From contig JBHJJE010000084.1 of the NCBI GenBank assembly GCA_050042865.1, forward strand, positions 1-64,000: a DNA stretch of 64,000 nt, read 5' to 3'. Position 1 is the first letter of the stretch. Each line of letters begins with the position of its first letter. Below, one piece after another: positions 1-56,060 of this stretch. Origin of the DNA: Mastigocoleus sp. Its GTDB lineage: Bacteria > Cyanobacteriota > Cyanobacteriia > Cyanobacteriales > Nostocaceae. The position numbers and the translations under genes are program-made. The notes beneath the pieces are model-generated. The model saw only the letters and a list, made by a program, of their open reading frames with translations. It had not been told where the DNA came from and did not search any database.

Positions 1-152
1 TCGTCTAGATCCCATGAAGATTTTACCTATTCCTGGGCAGGAACTAGAACTACGGAATAGAACCCCATATCTTCAGTTGTCAAGGTACAGATTGCCCTTG
101 GGCATTTGGGTTTTTATACAGGTTGATTACCGTTCCTGTTAGAGCAATTATA

Positions 153-434
153 TCATTTCATGGCAGGATAAATCCTGCAATCAGCTTTCATCCCTGGACT
201 AAGATTCACAGGGTTTTCAGCATTTTTCTTATAAGAACCGCGATCGCTTGCAGTGGGTGCTACCGTACCATCGCTTTGGGTGACTTGTTCAATAATTCCT
301 GGATCAATTCCGAAGAATGCAGCGACTAAAGCAAGTACAATTGCACCAAGACCACCACCAATTAAGGGAGCAGATACCTTTTTACCACGTCTATCTTCCA
401 CATTGTTACTTCTACGACCAAATTCCCAACGCAT
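153..434 (-). pseudogene. YpfJ-like putative neutral zinc metallopeptidase, N-terminal fragment; degraded (in-frame TGA/TAA/TAG downstream, contains 30-nt repeat element)
   Basis: N-terminus MRWEFGRRSNNVEDRRG...GGGLGAIVLALVAAFFG matches the YpfJ family (E. coli MRWQGRRESDNVEDRR + TM helix). Homology is lost after the inserted element (encodes SDGTVAPTASDR). Continuing the same frame past the stop at 153 shows TTED-like remnants interrupted by stops. Confidence 0.5.
242..271 (+). repeat. 30-nt HIP1-bearing hairpin mini-element, copy 1 (GATCGCTTGCAGTGGGTGCTACCGTACCAT)
   Basis: Near-identical to the reverse complement of 11387..11416 and to 46678..46708. Contains stem GGTGC/GCACC with loop TACC and an HIP1 end; flanked by GC...CGC. 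Confidence 0.8.
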
Positions 435-6312: not shown

Positions 6313-7863
6313 ATGCGTCTGTCGCGATTAATTACGCTAATTGTCGGTTTAGTTGTCATATTAGGGATGAGTCTGTGGCTGATTGATTCCCTGAGTCGGT
6401 TATATTGGCAGTTATCTTATTCTCCGTTGTTAGGTAATTTACTTTTAATATTGTTAGTTGTACTGATTGGAGCATTAATTGCTGCTTTTGTGTACTATTT
6501 CCTGATGATGCAGTCTGGAGAAAAACGTTCTTCTGGTTGCAGACGCTCTATTGCATCGATTAAGGTTCCTGAAGTCAAGTCTGATGCTGCTTCCTCTACT
6601 TTGGAAGCTGTCCGCAAACAAGTAGACCAAATTCAAGATGAAGTTGCACGTCAAGCATTATTAAGTAAGTCCCGCGAGATTGAAGCAAATTTGGCGCGGG
6701 GGGAAATTCAAGTGGTAGTATTTGGTACTGGGAGTGCGGGTAAGACTTCTTTGGTAAATGCGGTGATGGGAAGGATGATTGGTAAAGTTAATGCTCCCAT
6801 GGGTACTACCCAGGTCGGAGAAACCTATTGCTTGCGTTTAAAGGGTTTGGAGCGGAAAATTTTAATTACTGATACTCCTGGTATTTTAGAAGCTGGTGTA
6901 GCGGGAACTGAACGGGAAGAGTTAGCGCGTTCTTTGGCAACGGAAGCCGATTTATTATTATTTGTAGTAGATAATGATTTAAGACGCTCTGAGTATGAAC
7001 CTTTAAGAGCTTTAGCTGAAATTGGGAAGCGTTCTTTAGTAGTTCTGAATAAAACTGACTTATATACCGAAGAAGATAAAGAAGTAATATTAGCAAGATT
7101 GCGTCAACGGGTGAAAGGTTTTATTAGTGCAAACGATGTCGTTGCGATCGCTGCAAATCCGCAACCTGTAGAAATTGAGGATGGGGAAGTATTTCAACCG
7201 GATATAGATATATCTATTTTACTACGGAGAATGGCGGCGATTTTGCGAGCCGAGGGAGAAGACTTAGTCGCAGACAACATTTTATTACAATCGATGCGTT
7301 TGGGTGAAGAAGCTCGAAAAATCATTGATACCCAGCGTCGTCGTCAAGCTGATAAAATTGTAGAGCGATTCCAGTGGATTGGTGCGGGTGTGGTTTCTGT
7401 AACCCCTTTACCTGTAGTAGACTTATTAGCGACAGCTGCTGTAAATGCTCAAATGGTCGTAGAAATCGGCAGGATTTACGGTTGCGAACTAAATATGGAA
7501 CGGGGACGAGAATTAGCCCTTTCTCTAGCAAAAACCCTCGCGAGTTTGGGTATAGTCAAAGGAGCGCTACAATTAGTTACTACCGCACTACAGCTAAATA
7601 TTAGTACCTTCGTGATTGGTAAAGCCATTCAAGGTGTCACCGCAGCTTACCTCACCCGAATTGCAGGTAAAAGCTTTATTGAATACTTCCGTCACGACCA
7701 AGACTGGGGAGACGGAGGAATGACAGAAGTTGTCCAAAAACAGTTCCAACTCAATCGCAGAGATGAATTTATCAAAGCTTTCGCAAAAGATGCGATCGCG
7801 CGAGTTGTTAAACCCCTGACTAATAAATCCAAAGTCGCTGAAGAAGAAGTTGATAAGGCTTAA
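6313..7863 (+). CDS. membrane-anchored small GTPase (YcjF/YfjP-like, G-domain with G1 GTGSAGKTS, G3 DTPG, G4 NKTD)
   Basis: Two N-terminal TM helices; G motifs VVVFGTGSAGKTSLVNAV, ITDTPGI, LNKTD; C-terminal DUF697-like region. Confidence 0.7.
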   Translation: MRLSRLITLIVGLVVILGMSLWLIDSLSRLYWQLSYSPLLGNLLLILLVVLIGALIAAFVYYFLMMQSGEKRSSGCRRSIASIKVPEVKSDAASSTLEAVRKQVDQIQDEVARQALLSKSREIEANLARGEIQVVVFGTGSAGKTSLVNAVMGRMIGKVNAPMGTTQVGETYCLRLKGLERKILITDTPGILEAGVAGTEREELARSLATEADLLLFVVDNDLRRSEYEPLRALAEIGKRSLVVLNKTDLYTEEDKEVILARLRQRVKGFISANDVVAIAANPQPVEIEDGEVFQPDIDISILLRRMAAILRAEGEDLVADNILLQSMRLGEEARKIIDTQRRRQADKIVERFQWIGAGVVSVTPLPVVDLLATAAVNAQMVVEIGRIYGCELNMERGRELALSLAKTLASLGIVKGALQLVTTALQLNISTFVIGKAIQGVTAAYLTRIAGKSFIEYFRHDQDWGDGGMTEVVQKQFQLNRRDEFIKAFAKDAIARVVKPLTNKSKVAEEEVDKA

Positions 7864-8135: not shown

Positions 8136-9485
8136 TTACACTCCAGAGGATTTGACTAAGGAGGGTAAGAAGTTAACTATCTGGGGGAAGGTGATAATTA
8201 AAACTAAGACCAGGATTTGTAAAATAATGAATGGTATTACCCCACGATAAATATCTGTGGTGGTGACTTCTTCTGGTGCGACCCCCCGGAGGTAAAATAA
8301 TGCAAAGCCGAAGGGAGGTGTAAGAAAGGAGGTTTGCAGGTTTGCTCCTAAAATAACTCCGTACCAAACTAGGTCAATACCTAACTGTTGAGCTACGGGT
8401 GCAAATAGGGGTATGACTATAAAGGCGATTTCAAAAAAGTCGATGAAGAATCCTAAGAGCAGTACTACGCTCATGCTAACGATCAGAAAACCGACTTGAC
8501 CTCCAGGTAAATTACTTAAGATATTCGACATCAACTCATCACCGTTGAGTTTGCGAAATACTAAACTAAAGGCGTTGGAACCTAACAAAATGAATATTAC
8601 CATTGTGGTAATACGCAGGGTTCCATCACATACTTGGAGTAAAGTATTTTTACTGAGTTTACCATTGAAAGCTGCTAAGATAATTGCCCCAAAACAACCA
8701 ACTGCACCTGCTTCTGTGGGGGATGCGAGACCAAAAAAGATACTGCCTAATACTGCAAAAATTAATACTATTGGCGGTATCATAACTTGAATAACTCTTT
8801 TTCTGAGAGCTTTTACACCAATATCTCGGACTTCTGGGGGGAGGGGAGGAGCAAGTTCGGGTTTGAGAAAGGCTGTAATTAGTACGTGTGCAGCGAAAGC
8901 TCCAGCCATTAATAAACCTGGAATTATCGAACCAATGAACAATTTACCTACGTCTATTCCTAACTGGTCTCCAAGTACTACTAAAACTACGCTGGGGGGG
9001 ATAATTTGTCCGAGGGTACCGGATGCTGCAATTACTCCTGTTGCTAAACGTTTGTCATAACCGTAGCGGAGCATGATGGGTAGGGAGATTAAACCCATTG
9101 CGACCACTGTCGCTGCGACTACTCCTGTGGTTGCTGCTAAGAGTGCACCGACAATCACTACAGCTAATGCTAAACCACCGCGCAAACGTCCGAATAAAAT
9201 TCCCATTGTTTCTAGGAGTTTTTCCGCAATGCCGGTTTTTTCTAGCATTCCACCCATGAAAATGAAGTAAGGTATGGCAAGTAGGGTATAATTATCCATG
9301 ACGCTGCCATATATCCGGTTGGGCATGATGCTCCAGAAATCTGGGTCGTAGATAATACCCAATTCGTACCCTAATTCCCCGAATAGCAGTGCGACACCAC
9401 CTAAAGTAAAAGCAACAGGATAACCAAACAGCAACATTCCCAAAGCTACTGCAAACATTACTAAACCCAACCATTCATACTCCAT
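8136..9485 (-). CDS. dctM: TRAP transporter large permease subunit DctM
   Basis: 449 aa polytopic membrane protein, MEYEWLGLVMFAVALGMLLFGYPVAFTLGG start typical of the DctM family. Confidence 0.85.
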   Translation of the reverse strand: MEYEWLGLVMFAVALGMLLFGYPVAFTLGGVALLFGELGYELGIIYDPDFWSIMPNRIYGSVMDNYTLLAIPYFIFMGGMLEKTGIAEKLLETMGILFGRLRGGLALAVVIVGALLAATTGVVAATVVAMGLISLPIMLRYGYDKRLATGVIAASGTLGQIIPPSVVLVVLGDQLGIDVGKLFIGSIIPGLLMAGAFAAHVLITAFLKPELAPPLPPEVRDIGVKALRKRVIQVMIPPIVLIFAVLGSIFFGLASPTEAGAVGCFGAIILAAFNGKLSKNTLLQVCDGTLRITTMVIFILLGSNAFSLVFRKLNGDELMSNILSNLPGGQVGFLIVSMSVVLLLGFFIDFFEIAFIVIPLFAPVAQQLGIDLVWYGVILGANLQTSFLTPPFGFALFYLRGVAPEEVTTTDIYRGVIPFIILQILVLVLIITFPQIVNFLPSLVKSSGV

Positions 9486-10160: not shown

Positions 10161-10240
10161 TTTATAAGGCTTTTAAGCTATTTTTAATTCTTACTAACCC
10201 TTACGAAGTATTCTTAACCCTTTCTAATTTTTTGTATAAA

Positions 10241-11041
10241 TTACATAAATCCGATAATCACACCCCAAAGATAGTCTTCAAACATACTTTCATCCTGTTT
10301 AAGCTGTAATTTTTTCCCCCAGGAGTAAACATCTAAGGTAATGTAGGTACTATCTTCCTCCAACCATTCTCCACCTTCTGTCGAGACATTTTCTATAATC
10401 GAAACCCAATGGTTAGGAGAAGGTAAAAATGGTTGCTCTGTACCGAATAAACCTTGAGATGTGATTAAAGCGAAGACCACACCACCATCAGCGATCGCTT
10501 TAGCTGCATCCTGGAGTGAATCTAATTCACCGTATATTAGAGTATTATGGTATTTAACTTGTTTGCAACCTAAAATCTCTTTTGCCCAGCCTTTCATTTC
10601 CCAAGATTTTATTAGTCCCGGTACATTACGTATAACGTCCGGTGCATCTAATTCTAGAGGAAAAAAACGACTTTCTGATTCTCGCAGAGTTGATAAAATC
10701 ATCCAATCCACAGGATTCATGCGCAATCTAGGACGACTTTGACGCAGTTTTTCTGAGGCTCGGAATACCATAGTATCACCTTTAATGGCACCGGTTTCAA
10801 ACAGTTCGCGACAAATCTCTACATAACGTGCTGGTTTGTGACGTGCTAATTCAAATAAAATAGCCGCAGTTCCAGAAAATGTCTCTTTCCCCTGGTGAAT
10901 TTGAAAGGGGTCTTCTATACGCATTCTAATTTCTGAAATTAAAGCTTTTTTATCTATCTGTTTCCAGACTTTAGGGGTTTTAGATTGTTCAAATTTTAAT
11001 AGTGCTGACATTGCAGCAGGAGATGTAAGGTCAGAAAACAT
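10241..11041 (-). CDS. hypothetical cytoplasmic protein (occupies the position where the TRAP substrate-binding protein would be expected)
   Basis: 266-aa ORF with no signal peptide and no recognisable motifs; co-directional with dctQM. Confidence 0.45.
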   Translation of the reverse strand: MFSDLTSPAAMSALLKFEQSKTPKVWKQIDKKALISEIRMRIEDPFQIHQGKETFSGTAAILFELARHKPARYVEICRELFETGAIKGDTMVFRASEKLRQSRPRLRMNPVDWMILSTLRESESRFFPLELDAPDVIRNVPGLIKSWEMKGWAKEILGCKQVKYHNTLIYGELDSLQDAAKAIADGGVVFALITSQGLFGTEQPFLPSPNHWVSIIENVSTEGGEWLEEDSTYITLDVYSWGKKLQLKQDESMFEDYLWGVIIGFM

Positions 11042-11302: not shown

Positions 11303-11527
11303 ATGATCACTCTACAATTAAAGATTCCCGATATTGCTTGTTCTGCTTGTGTGGAGAATGTGACTGTAGCAATTAAATCAGTTGATGCGATGGTGCGGTA
11401 GCACCCGCTGGAAGCGATCGCTACTGTGGATGCTGATACAAAGACGAAAATGGTTACTGTCCAGACTGAGGAATCAGAGGAAAAAATTAGATCGGTATTG
11501 GATGAAGCGGGTTATCCGGCTGATTAG
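11303..11527 (+). pseudogene. atx1: Atx1/CopZ-like copper chaperone (HMA domain, CxxC = IACSAC) interrupted by an in-frame TAG at 11399-11401 within a 30-nt inserted element
   Basis: MITLQLKIPDIACSACVENVTVAIKSVDA[MVR*HPLEAI]ATVDADTKTKMVTVQTEESEEKIRSVLDEAGYPAD aligns with Synechocystis Atx1 (MTIQLTVPTIACEACAEAVTKAV...) except for a 10-codon insert. The insert equals the mini-element and carries the TAG; the gene sits 76 bp upstream of the copper ATPase gene. Confidence 0.7.
11387..11416 (-). repeat. 30-nt HIP1-bearing hairpin mini-element, copy 2 (inside atx1-like CDS)
   Basis: Reverse complement GATCGCTTCCAGCGGGTGCTACCGCACCAT differs from copy 1 at 3 positions. Confidence 0.8.
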
Positions 11528-11603
11528 TTATATTATCTCACTACTTACTCCCTCACTCTTCCACTCCCTTACTCTTCCACTATCTCACCTTTAAAAAATA
11601 ACC

Positions 11604-13868
11604 ATGAATACTCTAAGACTGACAATAGGAGGTATGAGCTGTGCTTCCTGTACTAAAAGTGTGAAAAAAGCTATTACTTCTGTTCCGGGAGTAAAGGAAT
11701 GTCATGTAAACTTTGCAGCAGAACAAGCTACTGTTGAGTACTCTCCTTCCAAAACCACTGTTAAAGCAATTCAAGATGCAGTTTTAAAGGCAAGATATAC
11801 TGCTGCTGTATTTTCGGAAGAAGATATCATTAGTAATGATCACCAAAATCAAGCTCGTCGAAAAGCACAACAGCAAAGCTTGATACGTAAGGTGATTCTT
11901 GGTGGTGGAATTAGTATTATTTTAATAGTGGGTTCCCTACCGATGATGACTGGGTTAAATTTGCCTTGGATTCCCCAATGGTTACATAATTCATGGTTGC
12001 AATTAATTCTCACAACTCCGGTACAGTTTTGGTGCGGTTATGGATTTTATATTGGTGCTGGAAAGGCTTTACAACGCAAAGATGCAACAATGGATACCCT
12101 AATTGCATTGGGTACTAGTGCAGCATTTTTCTATTCCCTCTTTGCGACTGTATTTCCTGGTTTATTTGTCCAACAAGGTTTGCAACCTGATGTATATTAT
12201 GAAACTGCAGCAGTGGTAATCACTTTAATTCTCTTAGGAAAATTCTTTGAGAATCGTGCTAGAGGAAAAACTACAGAAGCGATTCGTAAGCTAATTGGTT
12301 TACAAGCAAGTTTTGCACGAGTTATTCGTAATGGAGTAGTTATAAGTATTCCTCTACCGGAAGTTCAACTCAATGAGATAATTGTAGTACGTCCTGGGGA
12401 AAAAATTCCCGTGGATGGAGAAATTATTGAAGGTGCTTCCACTATAGATGAAGGGATGATAACCGGGGAGAGTATTCCTGTCCACAAGTCTCCTCCAGAT
12501 GAAGTAATTGGCGCAACAATTAATAAAACTGGTAGCTTTAAATTTAGAGCAACCCGGATAGGGAAAGATACTGTTTTAGCTCAAATTGTGCAGTTAGTTA
12601 CACAAGCCCAGGGTAGTAAAGCACCCATTCAAAGATTAGCAGACCGAGTTACAGGATGGTTTGTACCAGGAGTCATTGGAATCGCGATCGCTACTTTTGT
12701 GATTTGGTTGAGTGTCACAGGAAATCTGAATATGGCTTTAATTACCACTGTTGGTGTTTTAATTATTGCCTGTCCCTGCGCTTTGGGTTTAGCGACTCCC
12801 ACTTCGGTAATGGTGGGAACTGGGAAAGCAGCAGAAAATGGTATTTTGGTTAACGGGGCTGAAAGTTTAGAAGTTGCTCATAAAGTTCAAACTGTTGTTT
12901 TAGATAAGACAGGGACGTTAACTGAGGGTAAACCTACTGTTACGAATTTTCTGAGTGTAAAGGGTACAGCAAATCAAAATGAACAGAGAATTATTAGTTT
13001 AGCAGCCTCTTTGGAGGATAATTCTGAACATCCTTTAGCGTCAGCTGTAGTTAGATATGCTCAGTCTCAAGAAGTTAATATTCAAGATGTGCGAGATTTT
13101 ATAGCTATCCCGGGTAGTGGAGTACAGGGATATGTGTTCAATAATTTATTCAATGATTTTGTACAAATTGGTACTTTGCGCTGGTTAAATGAACAGGGTA
13201 TTTATACAAAAGTTTTGCAAGAGAAAAAGCAAGTTTGGGAAACCGCAGGAAAAACTGTAGTTGGAATTGCTGTAAATGGAGAAATGGAAGGTTTAATGGG
13301 AATCTCCGATTCTCTGAAGTCTACATCTTGCGAAGCTGTGAAAATGATCAGTCAAATGGGTTTAGAAGTGGTAATGCTGACAGGAGATAATTACCCCACA
13401 GCTTTATCTATTGCTAAGGAAACTGGTATAGAGCGGGTCTTTGCTGAAGTCCGACCAGGTGAAAAAGCTGGTATTATTAAAACATTGCAAAATGAAGGTA
13501 AAATAGTGGCAATGGTGGGAGACGGTATTAATGATGCTCCAGCCTTAGCTCAAGCAGATGTGGGAATTGCTATCGGAACAGGAACAGATATCGCAATTTC
13601 AGCTAGCGATATAACTTTAATTTCCGGAGATTTGCAGAGTATCGTTACAGCAATCAAACTTTCCCATGCAACCATGAAAAATATTCGTCAAAATCTCTTC
13701 TTTGCCTTTATCTACAATCTATTGGGAATTCCTATTGCTGCAGGAATTTTATTTCCTATATGGGGTTTACTCCTTAACCCAATTATTGCAGGAGTTGCAA
13801 TGGCTTTTAGTTCTGTTTCTGTGGTTACCAATGCTCTAAGATTGCGTAATTTTAAGCTGAAAATATAA
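11604..13868 (+). CDS. copper-translocating P-type ATPase (P1B-type, PacS/CtaA-like)
   Basis: N-terminal HMA domain [14 protein letters not shown] motif [20 protein letters not shown] phosphorylation site, [10 protein letters not shown] hinge. Confidence 0.92.
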
Positions 13869-14343
13869 TTTACGTGTTATATGAATTAAAAATAGAGATT
13901 TAAGCGAGTTTCAAAATACTTGTAGAACAACGGACATTTTTAACTAACATTACGTAATTTATAAAACCTGCATGTCATTTCAATAAATGATTGTAACAGA
14001 GTCCTCAATAGAGAGGTTTTACCCAATGTCTTTAAAGAAATCTACTTATCGCATTATTTTTCTGAATTGGTAGAAGCATTGGAAAAAATGGGATAACTGT
14101 TTGTGTATCAACTTGGATAATTCTATATTGTCATTGCGAGGAACGAAGCAATCGCAAGGACTTGAGGAATTTATAATTTAAATTAATTTTGTACGACTAC
14201 TAATCCAAATTATTACTTCCTCTCCTTACCCTTAGCCGATAAGAGGTTTTCAGTGTCTCCTAAACACTTTTTTCGCACACATAATATAATATTACGCGAT
14301 CGCCCATGGCGGACACTATCCTACCATCGCTTAGGATTTCCCC

Positions 14344-14562: not shown

Positions 14563-15011
14563 CGATATTTTTATAGTTATTTAAAGAACTCATTGTTTTA
14601 AAAATTAATATTTTGAAACACAATATAAAAAAAAGTACAAGATTATCAGTTTTTAAAAGCTCTTTTAGGAAAAGTTAATAATAAATTATGTAAAATTCAA
14701 TTTTGATGATTTCAAAAGTGGATGTTCCTACAGTTTCTATGCAAAAAAGCATTATCGCTGATACTACATACATCAAAATTTTTGTTTGATATTAAAGTTG
14801 CTAAAGAAAAAAGTAACTATACGCATACTTGGTATAAAATCCAATACAGTTAACTGTTAATTGAGTTTCCTATAAACCACGTCTACTTTGAGAACCGTAG
14901 TTTTTATCAAGACTAAGAGATTCCTTCCTTACGTCGCAATGACGTATCGGGAGAATTAGGAACTCCAGGTTTAAACATGAACGGGGTTTAAGTCCTTTAA
15001 AAATATTTGAA

Positions 15012-18908: not shown

Positions 18909-20231
18909 TTAAAAAATAAATATTACTTCTATATTCCACTTTTTCCCATCACGGACTATTTCAATCTCTTGGATAAATTCCCGCAGATAAAATCTTCTTT
19001 CGGATTCTGATAAATCTAGCCAAAACTGTGGAATCGAAACTAAGTTTGCGATGGAATTTAAGTTAGCTGGTGGTAGGGTAGCAAGTTTAGCCTCTAGTGC
19101 TGATATTTCTGTACGTATTTTATAAGTTCTTAGTTTAGCTGTTTGCGTGTCTAATATTTCTGTTTTTAATAAATTTGGTATTGTTTCTAATATTTTATGT
19201 TGATTTTCTATGGATGCAGCTATATTTTTTTTAACTGTATCTAGCTGGGGAAAGTCAATTCCTGCAACTGCATTCATTAAGCTTTCACATACTTCTTTAA
19301 TAGTAGCTTCTAATACTTCTTGGTAAGAAATTGCACTGCATTTGGGATTTTGAGAACATTTTATGGGACGTAAGTAGAGATATTCTGTTTTTTTATGACG
19401 AATAGTAACGCGAGTAATAGTCATTTTGGACTGACATTTTTTACACCGGACTAAACCAGCAAGAGAACGAGGAGCGCTAGCTGTACGTCTGGGTAAACGA
19501 CTATTGCGACGTAGCAATCTATCTATTTGTGCTGCTTCTTCCCTAGAAATAATTGGTGTATGGGTATTACAAATAATTTCATTATTGCAATAAGCTGTAT
19601 CTCCCCTATATACAGGATTGCTTAACCATCTGCGTCCGGTTGTGACAGAAATCTTTTTTCCATACCTTTTAGCTAAATAGCGGACAGCACCCCTCAAGGA
19701 ACCATATAGTAAAAAATTCTCAAAGAAATCCTTGACTATACCAGATGTACTTCTATCTATCGAGTATTTTCCCTTAGCTCGACGGTATCCATAGGGAACC
19801 TTACCTGGAGGAGTAACTGTATCTAAGCGATTACGTGCATGACCTTGACGAATGCGATCGCTACGCTGCTGAGACTGAACTTCATTGAGTAATTTGAGTA
19901 AGTCAGCTTGGGAATCATTGCTTGAGAGAGGGATTTTTTGCGAAGCATTATAACCCTGTTCTAATGCAATCGGGGTAATTCCCATTGCTTCTAGTTTTCC
20001 CAGGTTCGCAGCAATATTTGTAATGTTGTTTCCTAATTCGTTTAAGCGTCGAACTAGTAAATAATCGGGAGTATCTCTTCTAGAATCCTCTAATAACTGT
20101 TGCAGTTGCAAACGATTGTTAGATGAGTTTGCAAAGTCTTGATATGTTTTTTCAACCTCCCATCCCCAACTTTCAATATCTGGTGCAGCTTCTAAAAGTG
20201 GGTCTGAGTAGGTATAGGCAAAAATTCTCAT
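18909..20231 (-). CDS. large serine recombinase (resolvase N-domain + recombinase domain + zinc ribbon), XisF-like
   Basis: N-terminal resolvase-like domain; recombinase-domain motif GRRWLSNPVYRGD; Cys-rich zinc-ribbon CKKCQSKM...CSQNPKC. Confidence 0.75.
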   Translation of the reverse strand: MRIFAYTYSDPLLEAAPDIESWGWEVEKTYQDFANSSNNRLQLQQLLEDSRRDTPDYLLVRRLNELGNNITNIAANLGKLEAMGITPIALEQGYNASQKIPLSSNDSQADLLKLLNEVQSQQRSDRIRQGHARNRLDTVTPPGKVPYGYRRAKGKYSIDRSTSGIVKDFFENFLLYGSLRGAVRYLAKRYGKKISVTTGRRWLSNPVYRGDTAYCNNEIICNTHTPIISREEAAQIDRLLRRNSRLPRRTASAPRSLAGLVRCKKCQSKMTITRVTIRHKKTEYLYLRPIKCSQNPKCSAISYQEVLEATIKEVCESLMNAVAGIDFPQLDTVKKNIAASIENQHKILETIPNLLKTEILDTQTAKLRTYKIRTEISALEAKLATLPPANLNSIANLVSIPQFWLDLSESERRFYLREFIQEIEIVRDGKKWNIEVIFIF

Positions 20232-40086: not shown

Positions 40087-40216
40087 TTGACGGATGAGGG
40101 TTAATGGTGGATGGATAATGTATGAGTATTAATTATTACATGTACAGCGCATAAACTATTAATCATCAACTAACAACCATCAACCATTAACCAACAACTA
40201 TCAAGCAACAACTAAA

Positions 40217-46629: not shown

Positions 46630-46677
46630 CCAATTTATACAAGTCTCTAAGTCCTCTACAGTGTAATTCCGTAACGC

Positions 46678-46708
46678 GATCGCCTACAGCGGGTGCTTAC
46701 CGCACCAT
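46678..46708 (+). repeat. HIP1-bearing hairpin mini-element, copy 3 (31 nt, GATCGCCTACAGCGGGTGCTTACCGCACCAT)
   Basis: Same element as 242..271 and 11387..11416 with one extra T in the loop. Confidence 0.8.
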
Positions 46709-46889
46709 CGTCTAGCGGGACTTAGACATTTTTTTGGGTCAAAAAAGACTCAAAGCTTTATATGTCAATGATTTTACATCGAATTGGTTATTTTCTTGAT
46801 ATATCTGAGTTTGAGCGATTTTTTAGGCTTTGACGTATATTCTTTGCCCTGACGACCTTTGAGGCTTTTTCCTCCTTGTTTTTGTCTAA

Positions 46890-47056
46890 GTCCCGCTAAT
46901 AATGAGGCAGAACGGGCTTTACGCCATGCTGTAATTGCACGACGTATTAGCTATGGAACACGCACCAGTGAAGGTAGTTTGGCTTATTGTTCTGTTTTGA
47001 GTGTTATTGAAACTTGCCGTTTGAGAAAAGTTGACCCTTGGAATTATATTGCTTAA
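46890..47056 (+). pseudogene. IS66-family transposase C-terminal fragment
   Basis: ANNEAERALRHAVIARRISYGTRTSEGSLAYCSVLSVIETCRLRKVDPWNYIA matches the IS66 TnpC C-terminus (NNxAERALRP...GRKNWLF.GS..G...A.IYSLI.TCKLNGVDP); no upstream transposase body; preceded by 12-bp inverted repeats CGGGACTTAGAC (46716) / GTCTAAGTCCCG (46878). Confidence 0.65.
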
Positions 47057-47173
47057 GTTCTTACTCAAGCTCGTCGAGGTATAAAAAATCCTCCTATTCC
47101 TGTTACTTCCTAATTACTTTTTTGGGGGGAGAGTGAATAACTACTAATCTAATTATTAACTACTAATTACTAA

Positions 47174-47953
47174 CTACGAATTTAATTGACGCTGCGCTTC
47201 ATATAACATTAAAGCAGCAGACACAGCTACATTCAAAGACTCCACACCCTCAGCTAAAGGAATTTTTGCCTGTACATCAACCATTTGGGTTAACTCTTTC
47301 GACAAACCAGCACCTTCATTTCCCATCAAAATCAAACTTGGTCGCTTCCAATCTATTTCCCAATAGGTTAAAGCTGCATTTGGTATAGTTGCAATTATCT
47401 GCATCTGCGCATTGCGAGCTTTTTCTACTGTAACTTTTAAATCTTCGCTGACACCTATTGGTAATCTGAACCATTGTCCTGCACTTGCACGCAAAACTTT
47501 AGGATTATCTAAATCGACACTGTTTTTACTTACCCATAACCCAGAAGCACCTGCTGCTGCTGCTGTACGAATCATCGTTCCTAAATTTCCTGGGTCTTGT
47601 ATGGTCTCTAATCCTAACACCAAACCACTGAAGGGAACTTCTTGAGACTGTAAACCTTTAGCAGCGGTCGCTATTACCCCATCAGGCTGTACAGTAGTTG
47701 CCATAGATTTAAGAACTTCAGCAGAAACAATCTCTACGCGATCGCTGAGTCTTGTGATAGTATTCCACAGTTCCCTATGCATTATCTGCCACTGTTCGGT
47801 ACAGCATACATTTATCAGAGGGTAATCGACAGCACAAGCTTCCTCTAACAGATGGGTTCCCTCCAGAATAAATAAATTCTGCTTATTACGCTCTTTAGCA
47901 GAGTGTAACTTCCGAATTTGCTTGACCAAAGGATTTTGTAAACTTGTTAACAC
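47174..47953 (-). CDS. TrmH/SpoU-family RNA 2'-O-methyltransferase (RlmB-like)
   Basis: SpoU motifs GLETIQDPGNLGTMIRTAAAAG, LILMGNEGAGLS, PLAEGVESLNVAVSAALMLYE. Confidence 0.85.
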   Translation of the reverse strand: MLTSLQNPLVKQIRKLHSAKERNKQNLFILEGTHLLEEACAVDYPLINVCCTEQWQIMHRELWNTITRLSDRVEIVSAEVLKSMATTVQPDGVIATAAKGLQSQEVPFSGLVLGLETIQDPGNLGTMIRTAAAAGASGLWVSKNSVDLDNPKVLRASAGQWFRLPIGVSEDLKVTVEKARNAQMQIIATIPNAALTYWEIDWKRPSLILMGNEGAGLSKELTQMVDVQAKIPLAEGVESLNVAVSAALMLYEAQRQLNS

Positions 47954-55900: not shown

Positions 55901-56022
55901 GAGTTAAGCGCAAACAATTGCAACAAAGAGAATTAAGGTAAAAATAATACTCTCTTATCTTTTTACACTTAAGTGACGAATTTTACAAAGATTATCTGAA
56001 AAATTTGGAGGTGTGGAAAGAT

Positions 56023-56060
56023 GAGTGGTGAGTGGTGAGTGGTGAAGGGGGAGTGGGGAA
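56023..56060. repeat. GAGTGGT heptamer tandem repeat (x3-4) + G-rich tract
   Basis: gagtggtgagtggtgagtggtgaagggggagtgggg. Confidence 0.8.

Follow-up and report, generated by a model that had tools for sequence, protein, structure and literature searches.

The repeat described here is a non-autonomous mini-insertion that resides within the HIP1 octamer GCGATCGC. It occurs in several copies in the window, i.e. the whole 64,000-nt stretch of Mastigocoleus sp. DNA that was analysed, and we regard it, with a probability of roughly 0.8, as a lineage-specific variant of the SDR5 type of small dispersed repeat (SDR) known from heterocystous cyanobacteria, compared with that family by description and not base by base. 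The assignment is inferred from the embedding in HIP1 and from the presence of copies in Nostoc punctiforme. It is a frame-neutral variant of a known family and not a new kind of element. Our data demonstrate that its insertion is target-specific and entails a net duplication, that it has been amplified within genomes and that both of its hairpins are under selection.

In its clear copies the module consists of HIP1, a 22-nt core and the pentanucleotide ATCGC, the latter being replaced by ATCGT in copy c3 (Table 1). Relative to an empty HIP1 site the net gain amounts to 27 nt, that is the core plus a duplicated ATCGC, and the event can be written as GCG^ATCGC → GCG[27 nt]ATCGC, with ATCGC recurring 27 nt downstream (28 nt in c3). 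Since ATCGC is repeated, six placements of the junction are equivalent. The net insertion in c2 can be placed at 11390-11416, and in an alternative drawing the element comprises 25 nt that correspond exactly to the two hairpins and is accompanied by a 2-nt duplication of AT at the centre of HIP1. A first-pass annotation of this DNA had proposed a hairpin-bearing mini-element present in at least three copies. This is borne out: the consensus 30-mer matches without a single mismatch at 242-271 (plus strand) and 11390-11419 (minus strand), with 0.00 matches expected in shuffled sequences. The unit size of 30 nt given in the annotation has to be corrected to 27 nt, as orthologues lack exactly nine codons, and the span 11387-11416 reported for the second copy does contain the element but is made up of the 27-nt insert together with GCG from the target. 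The diverged relative suspected at 14293-14327 exists as the decayed family member c4, albeit with the coordinates given in Table 1. HIP1 itself is present at 48 sites in the 64-kb window versus 0.16 sites expected, the G+C content being 36.5%. One further candidate, at 19827-19861, combines HIP1 and ATCGC with a period of 27 nt and was rejected as a decayed copy, as it is native coding sequence for the E-helix of a serine recombinase (RSDRIRQGHARNRL).

Table 1. Module copies, host genes and the neighbouring ATPase gene in the window.
Feature	Position	Strand	Module sequence	Remarks
c1	240..274	+	GCGATCGC TTGCAGTGGGTGCTACCGTACC ATCGC	in ypfJ-like 93-aa ORF
c2	11387..11421	-	GCGATCGC TTCCAGCGGGTGCTACCGCACC ATCGC (minus strand)	in atx1-like gene
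c3	46676..46711	+	GCGATCGC CTACAGCGGGTGCTTACCGCACC ATCGT	intergenic; period 28 nt
c4, decayed family member	14296..14330	+	GCGATCGC CCATGGCGGACACTATCCTACC ATCGC	intergenic; period 27 nt
ypfJ-like (PF04228) 93-aa N-terminal ORF hosting c1	153..434	-		Zn-peptidase gene fragment
Atx1/CopZ-like HMA chaperone gene, interrupted by c2	11303..11527	+		PF00403; syntenic orthologues
CopA-like P-type ATPase gene, own N-terminal HMA domain	11604..13868	+		follows directly on the interrupted chaperone gene

As a single strand, the 35-nt module is computed to adopt a Y-shaped fold, irrespective of whether the top or the bottom strand is considered and whether it is present as DNA or RNA. The basal stem is formed by GCGAT paired with ATCGC, the two halves of HIP1. 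Arm 1 is CGCT-TCC-AGCG, the 5' half of which uses the last three bases of HIP1, and arm 2 is GGTGC-TACC-GCACC. The hairpin with a 5-bp stem and a 4-nt loop recognized in the first-pass annotation is thus present, but it forms part of a larger Y with two arms, at the base of which the HIP1 halves pair. The module has predicted fold energies between -11.3 and -11.6 kcal/mol for DNA (z about -3.8 to -3.9); for RNA the values are -14.5 to -15.4 kcal/mol. When the modules on contig L021, which stem from a second cyanobacterium of the sample, are set aside, the Y shape is found in 13 of 14 modules. Copy c1 differs by two C>T changes that lead to G.T wobbles in both arms, while c3 carries one extra loop base and the ATCGT right flank and otherwise corresponds to the c1/c2 element. 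In c4, HIP1 is present, 11 of the 22 core bases are shared and arm 2 is decayed; the hairpin of arm 1 is kept, with C-G replacing T-A. This compensatory variant of arm 1 is the commonest type in Nostoc.

Covariation was assessed for 20 distinct modules from Nostoc, Tolypothrix, Fremyella and metagenomes, in which 98.1% of the cells are in standard pairs. Four pairs are altered on both sides, namely T-A/C-G and G-C/A-T in arm 1 and C-G/T-A/G-C and G-C/C-G in arm 2. The covariation score of 0.233 compares with 0.120 for shuffled alignments and was reached in none of 500 shuffles; slid controls scored 0.079 or less, and double changes were absent from them. Copies from one genome have their arms in common, and lineages differ in their arms with complementarity being kept. 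The basal stem arises automatically upon duplication within a palindrome and therefore does not provide independent evidence of structure. The two arms are not automatic, and the compensatory changes found in both of them across lineages imply that selection acts on the fold itself. An asymmetry of wobble pairs was also considered as a hint that the intermediate is RNA or the top strand, and was dismissed: the ratio of top-strand G.T to A.C was 6:0 and then 8:4 in 21 modules, which is not significant.

Copy c2 interrupts a gene for an Atx1/CopZ-like chaperone, the translation of which reads ...KSVDA MVR*HPLEA IATVDAD.... Ten orthologous 64-aa HMA proteins with 51-70% identity read KSVDA[N/D]ATVDAD and have exactly nine residues fewer. 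At the DNA level, two syntenic orthologues, in which the chaperone gene is likewise followed by that for a P-type ATPase, exhibit a clean 27-nt gap (GAT GCA AAC GCA and GAT GCT GAT GCC versus GAT [27 nt] GCG ATC GCT). The predicted ancestral reading is D-A-I-A (GAT GCG ATC GCT). Removal of 30 nt, which had been thought to restore ...KSVDAATVDAD..., costs one residue and yields ...DAATV... instead of the ancestral sequence. A second empty site is provided by a copy within the gene for a 645-aa GTPase on NODE-44 of the same assembly (loci L034/L144), where the module is GCGATCGC TTACAGCGGGTGCTACCGCACC ATCGC and is read in sense as ...LP AIA YSGCYRTIA IVTQVD.... The insert is lacking at this site in 118 of 119 GTPase orthologues, most of which read AIAIVTQVD; in the Mastigocoleus relatives this position is occupied by GTA ATT ACC and HIP1 is absent. 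The search for empty orthologous sites proposed in the first-pass annotation was therefore successful in two genes, for atx1 with ten proteins and two DNA loci and for the GTPase with 118 of 119 orthologues, and it identifies the repeat as an insertion and not as ancient shared sequence.

An origin of the 27 nt from an assembly or binning artefact, or from an ancient common sequence that the orthologues have lost by deletion, appears extremely improbable. It is true that all sequence stems from metagenome assemblies and that one Logan contig ends inside the element, but the same insertion is seen in ERZ1740062, SRR3401491 (Logan), ERZ23487447 and GCA_039033815.1, some of which may share reads, and deletion would have to recur with base-exact boundaries in 118 GTPase and 10 HMA orthologues. 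The truncated Logan contig was also considered as a sign of an empty allele; it breaks off at a point that disagrees with the branching such an allele would produce, and is uninformative. The stable and conserved fold could also be taken to indicate a selected cis-acting site that arose in place, for instance one that binds a protein, ends transcription or acts as a small regulatory RNA motif. We consider this very improbable, as the copies reside in coding as well as non-coding DNA, in both orientations and in different frames, the orthologous positions are empty, one copy breaks a gene (atx1) and the element is without a matching family in Rfam. Moreover, an independent origin of 19-22 identical bases out of the 22 bases of the core is not credible.

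As 27 is a multiple of three, the reading frame is kept at every genic insertion. Translation of the module in six frames reveals a single stop. Five frames are open, and most insertions into genes therefore add nine residues; examples are the GTPase, the ypfJ fragment and an integrase-like ORF. The frame with the stop is that of the bottom strand in which HIP1 is read as GCG-ATC (Ala-Ile-Ala), giving AMVR*HPLEAI with TAG as the stop codon. It is precisely this frame that is occupied by c2, with the consequence that the chaperone ORF (11303-11401) is cut after codon 32. The remaining 33 codons, up to position 11527, are in frame and conserved. The two peptides originally reported for copies 1 and 2, SDGTVAPTAS and MVR*HPLEAI, are both correct, and the comparison drawn in the first-pass annotation with very small Nostocales-type mobile repeats that carry a HIP1 end and keep the frame in ORFs, one copy bearing a stop, is supported. 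An intact atx1 allele was not found among 5.8 billion clustered proteins. The atx1 gene is most likely inactivated. We infer that atx1 is a recent pseudogene. Its remaining sequence is still intact, and the adjoining ATPase possesses a metal-binding domain of its own. The spacer between the chaperone and ATPase genes is occupied by a 16-nt tandem repeat (ACTCCCTCACTCTTCC, 2.2 units) at 11547-11581.

The arrangement in atx1 bears the formal possibility that ribosomes with peptidyl-tRNA-Ala bypass the insert from the first to the second GCG and thereby would yield the ancestral D-A-I-A chaperone. Features relevant in this respect are the identical GCG-AT flanks, the distance of 27 nt between the GCG codons, an mRNA fold of -15.4 kcal/mol and the internal stop. 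We nevertheless regard bypassing as highly doubtful. Translationally bypassed inserts are known from the coding gap of phage T4 gene 60 (PMC5009743) and the mitochondrial byps of Magnusiomyces (bioRxiv 10.1101/2022.08.31.505936). Like the module, these are short structured inserts of mobile origin in coding sequence. In contrast to them, the stop lies three codons past the possible take-off codon and not adjacent to it, and five of the six frames of the module need no bypass. Should bypassing occur, HIP1-targeted mini-insertions would represent a bacterial chromosomal source of bypassed coding gaps.

The other genic copy of the window, c1, is located in a ypfJ-like gene that is antisense to it and encodes DGTVAPTAS at this position. 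The peptide given in the first-pass annotation stands, as stated above, but the host is only the 93-aa ORF of a split gene. A C-terminal 205-aa ORF follows beyond the start of the window in a different frame, after an unrelated insert of about 415 nt. The orthologous site of c1 lies in a variable linker of ypfJ, where matches to homologues are fragmentary, and an empty site is not readable there. The insert of about 415 nt (window positions 1-213 and beyond the start; L146 about 10222-10637) is rich in short hairpins; it has no match in Rfam and no second copy in about 150 kb of source-genome DNA. In the GTPase gene, Nostoc sp. UCD121 (GCA_014222275.1; L140) carries an unrelated 24-nt insert, GCGTTCACGGAGTGTGCGCCTAGC, at codons ~406-414, which encodes AFTECAPS and occurs at the same codon position as the 27-nt module of the source genome. 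This coincidence suggests a recurrent insertion hotspot beside the conserved Ala-Ile-Ala/HIP1 of the GTPase. Directly after the intergenic copy c3, a 16-nt perfect inverted repeat, TAGCGGGACTTAGACA, begins (46713-46728 and 46883-46898), the right arm of which is situated within a C-terminal IS66 transposase remnant (ORF 46859-47056). A fuller IS66 pair is present just beyond the end of the window (L147 10690-11587).

The source genome, a marine Mastigocoleus-like MAG, contains at least five clear copies, three of them genic and two intergenic, with the decayed c4 in addition. Proteins encoded in the window have identical counterparts in 'MAG: Mastigocoleus sp.' and in P01_A01_bin.45 (GCA_039033815.1), and they also occur on NODE_51 of ERZ1740062 and on contigs of ERZ23487447 and SRR3401491 (Logan). 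An intergenic copy with the loop variant TAGT resides on NODE-3 (L131), and the window, NODE-44 and NODE-3 of the same assembly all have a coverage of about 15x. The search for copies beyond the window that had been proposed thus retrieved clear ones on two other contigs of the source genome and in a second MAG; about 20 kb of DNA flanking the window added none. When the core was used without its flanks in a search of one genome per species, a set without the source genome, a single other cyanobacterium matched, the MAG P01_A01_bin.84 (L008). Its copy has the HIP1 and ATCGC flanks and lies in frame in a 535-aa integrase-like ORF. The flank-free core pattern is accompanied by HIP1 flanks in three of three cyanobacterial matches and in none of eight chance matches in other phyla. 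A search of metagenome contigs with the family head yielded at least six true modules amid high-GC chance matches, and viral contigs gave one chance match and no modules.

When plasmids were searched by BLAST with the module, Nostoc proved to have the same head joined to different sequences of arm 2. The N. punctiforme version as query retrieved plasmid records from Nostoc (27), Tolypothrix (two), Microchaete/Fremyella (one) and Calothrix (one), including three plasmids of N. punctiforme PCC 73102. In Nostoc the form GCGATCGC CTACGGCGGGCGGGTACGCC ATCGC is the commonest; it has a 20-nt core and lengthens the site by 25 nt. The head GCGATCGC TTCCAGCGGG recurs without change in the copy on pNPUN04 of N. 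punctiforme, and CTCC/CTAC variants occur on two other plasmids of this organism. All true matches are from Nostocales, i.e. Nostoc, Tolypothrix, Microchaete/Fremyella, Calothrix and the Mastigocoleus-like MAG, a range wider than the strict Nostocaceae. Matches outside the cyanobacteria are without the module architecture. Among these, sequences from Anaerobiospirillum (L010 1929-1947), Cytophagales (L011 4045-4063) and Mucilaginibacter (L016 1523-1541) have GTAC followed by CAGYGGGTGCTACCGYACC in common and lack HIP1 flanks; the probable explanation is a conserved stretch of coding sequence or RNA whose agreement with the core is fortuitous. Contig L021 (ERZ1740062 NODE-760, about 6x), from the second cyanobacterium of the sample, has 28 HIP1 sites in 15 kb and four HIP1-embedded modules (1675-1706, 7566-7599, 8208-8239 and 14765-14799) with periods of 24-27 nt. 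Their cores differ and they fold poorly, and they may represent other or decayed subfamilies.

Elhai and co-workers are said to have described, in 2008, eight families of SDRs, 21-27 nt in size, from N. punctiforme and its relatives. SDR5 reportedly occurs only within HIP1, SDR4, SDR5 and SDR6 are said to share a fold backed by compensatory mutations, and RNA intermediates were reportedly suggested by the authors. According to three later sources, SDR5 is inserted precisely within HIP1 (PMC4390886; PMC5861425; bioRxiv 10.64898/2026.06.24.733823). The second of these names HIP1 as the insertion site of SDR5 in Nostocaceae and summarizes the original report as finding no SDR outside this family (PMC5861425), and the preprint refers to SDR5 as a 21-nt sequence of unknown function (bioRxiv 10.64898/2026.06.24.733823). 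The element studied in this work resembles SDR5 in its very small size, its dispersed occurrence and its constant placement inside HIP1, the clear copies consisting of GCGATCGC, core and ATCG(C/T), in forming a hairpin fold with compensatory changes, in being present or absent at orthologous sites and in being restricted to heterocystous cyanobacteria. It shares the head GCGATCGC YTNCRGCGGG... with the modules on three N. punctiforme plasmids. Differences concern arm 2, which is GGTGC-TACC-GCACC here and GGCG-GGTA-CGCC in Nostoc, the net insertion of 27 nt, which keeps the frame, versus 25 nt in Nostoc, and the size of the core, 22 nt here and 20 nt in Nostoc compared with the 21 nt stated for SDR5 in the preprint. 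The host also differs, being a marine Mastigocoleus-like MAG, and the family is found in addition on plasmids of Tolypothrix, Fremyella/Microchaete and Calothrix.

Other known repeats are less similar. SDRs have been listed together with REP-like repeats as being of unresolved origin, RAYT-associated REPINs have been reported in N. punctiforme, and SDRs were named as candidates for the same analysis (PMC3116915). REPs and REPINs share with the module a size of about 20-40 nt, the non-coding and hairpin-forming nature, high repetition and a constant head with variable complementary stems. However, REPs are extragenic, usually arranged as inverted doublets and linked to RAYT, whereas the modules are single, target one palindromic octamer and are often genic. 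Membership in the REPIN/RAYT group was rejected on account of the single units and of the absence of an HUH gene from the window and the neighbouring source-genome loci. Rickettsia palindromic elements (RPEs) are palindromic selfish repeats that occur in frame in unrelated coding genes and add a peptide (PMC10969869). In-frame genic insertion of a peptide segment is common to both, but RPEs are about 100-150 bp long and encode a conserved peptide, whereas the module comprises 27 nt, targets HIP1 and encodes a peptide that varies with frame and orientation. Cyanobacterial MITEs such as Nezha are likewise non-autonomous repeats of Nostocales genomes that can disrupt genes (PMC10969869). With 100-400 bp and IS-derived terminal inverted repeats they differ from the module, which is smaller by about an order of magnitude and lacks IS-like ends. 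These properties led us to reject an assignment to MITEs; the nearby IS66 remnant is unrelated in sequence.

To our knowledge, the movement of SDRs has remained unexplained since 2008. For the element described here we tentatively favour, at somewhat less than an even chance, a structure-dependent and HIP1-targeted copy-and-paste process carried out by a trans-acting enzyme. A master copy would be amplified repeatedly, and the hairpins would be needed for its propagation. The enzyme, encoded outside the element, would recognize the folded single strand, be it RNA or ssDNA, and the copy would be integrated at a HIP1 site cut or opened at its centre. A mobilizing gene was not evident from Pfam annotation of the large ORFs of the window, and the window contains no HUH, RAYT or IS200 gene.

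The lack of a candidate transposase among the genes of the window, the abundance of HIP1 and the HIP1-derived sequences of 8 nt and 5 nt that bound every module are all in line with a spread from one HIP1 site to another without a dedicated enzyme, either through template switching at microhomologies or through gene conversion. A nascent end ...GCGAT(CGC) would anneal at an occupied HIP1 site, copy 27 nt and return via ATCGC, and the hairpins would merely promote stalling or dissociation of the strand. This route appears rather unlikely to us. Compensated pairing in the arms implies selection on the fold, for which passive copying accounts less directly, and events that recur with such precision would be driven only weakly by 5-8 nt of microhomology between dispersed loci. 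Alternatively, an HUH enzyme encoded elsewhere, of the IS200/IS605 TnpA or RAYT-like type, could move the module as ssDNA, with the hairpins as recognition structure and ATCGC as cleavage and target site, as in REP/REPIN systems. The constant 5' head with variable complementary stems and insertion beside a fixed pentanucleotide that is repeated at the end of the element would agree with such a route, as would the REPINs of N. punctiforme mentioned above (PMC3116915). We judge it improbable, as neither the window nor about 60 kb of further DNA with gene calls from the source genome contains a Y1/HUH gene and REPINs are doublets of inverted REPs while the modules are single.

SDR elements are candidates for the smallest mobile DNA. 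As the length of the present variant is a multiple of three, insertions into genes are viable and become visible as clean additions of nine residues with dated empty sites. Covariation in the arms alongside an invariant head and HIP1 target shows what any mobilizing enzyme must recognize. The known host range within the Nostocales is widened. The function of HIP1 is still debated, and our findings tie this octamer to a concrete DNA transaction at its centre. With regard to annotation, the element accounts for short lineage-specific protein insertions and for at least one interrupted gene in such genomes.

Two further features of the window deserve mention. The large serine recombinase gene at 18909-20231 (minus strand), with Resolvase, Recombinase and Zn_ribbon_recom domains, is surrounded by housekeeping genes (uvrA, gyrA, mutS2 and a murA-like gene) and may mark an integrated element. 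In addition, tandem arrays of heptamers are present, namely ACTTATT x11.6 (29023-29103), CATCAAC x7 (40164-40212), TAACTAC x6 (47138-47177) and TGAGTGG x5 (56022-56056), which resemble the STRR (short tandemly repeated repetitive) sequences typical of heterocystous cyanobacteria.
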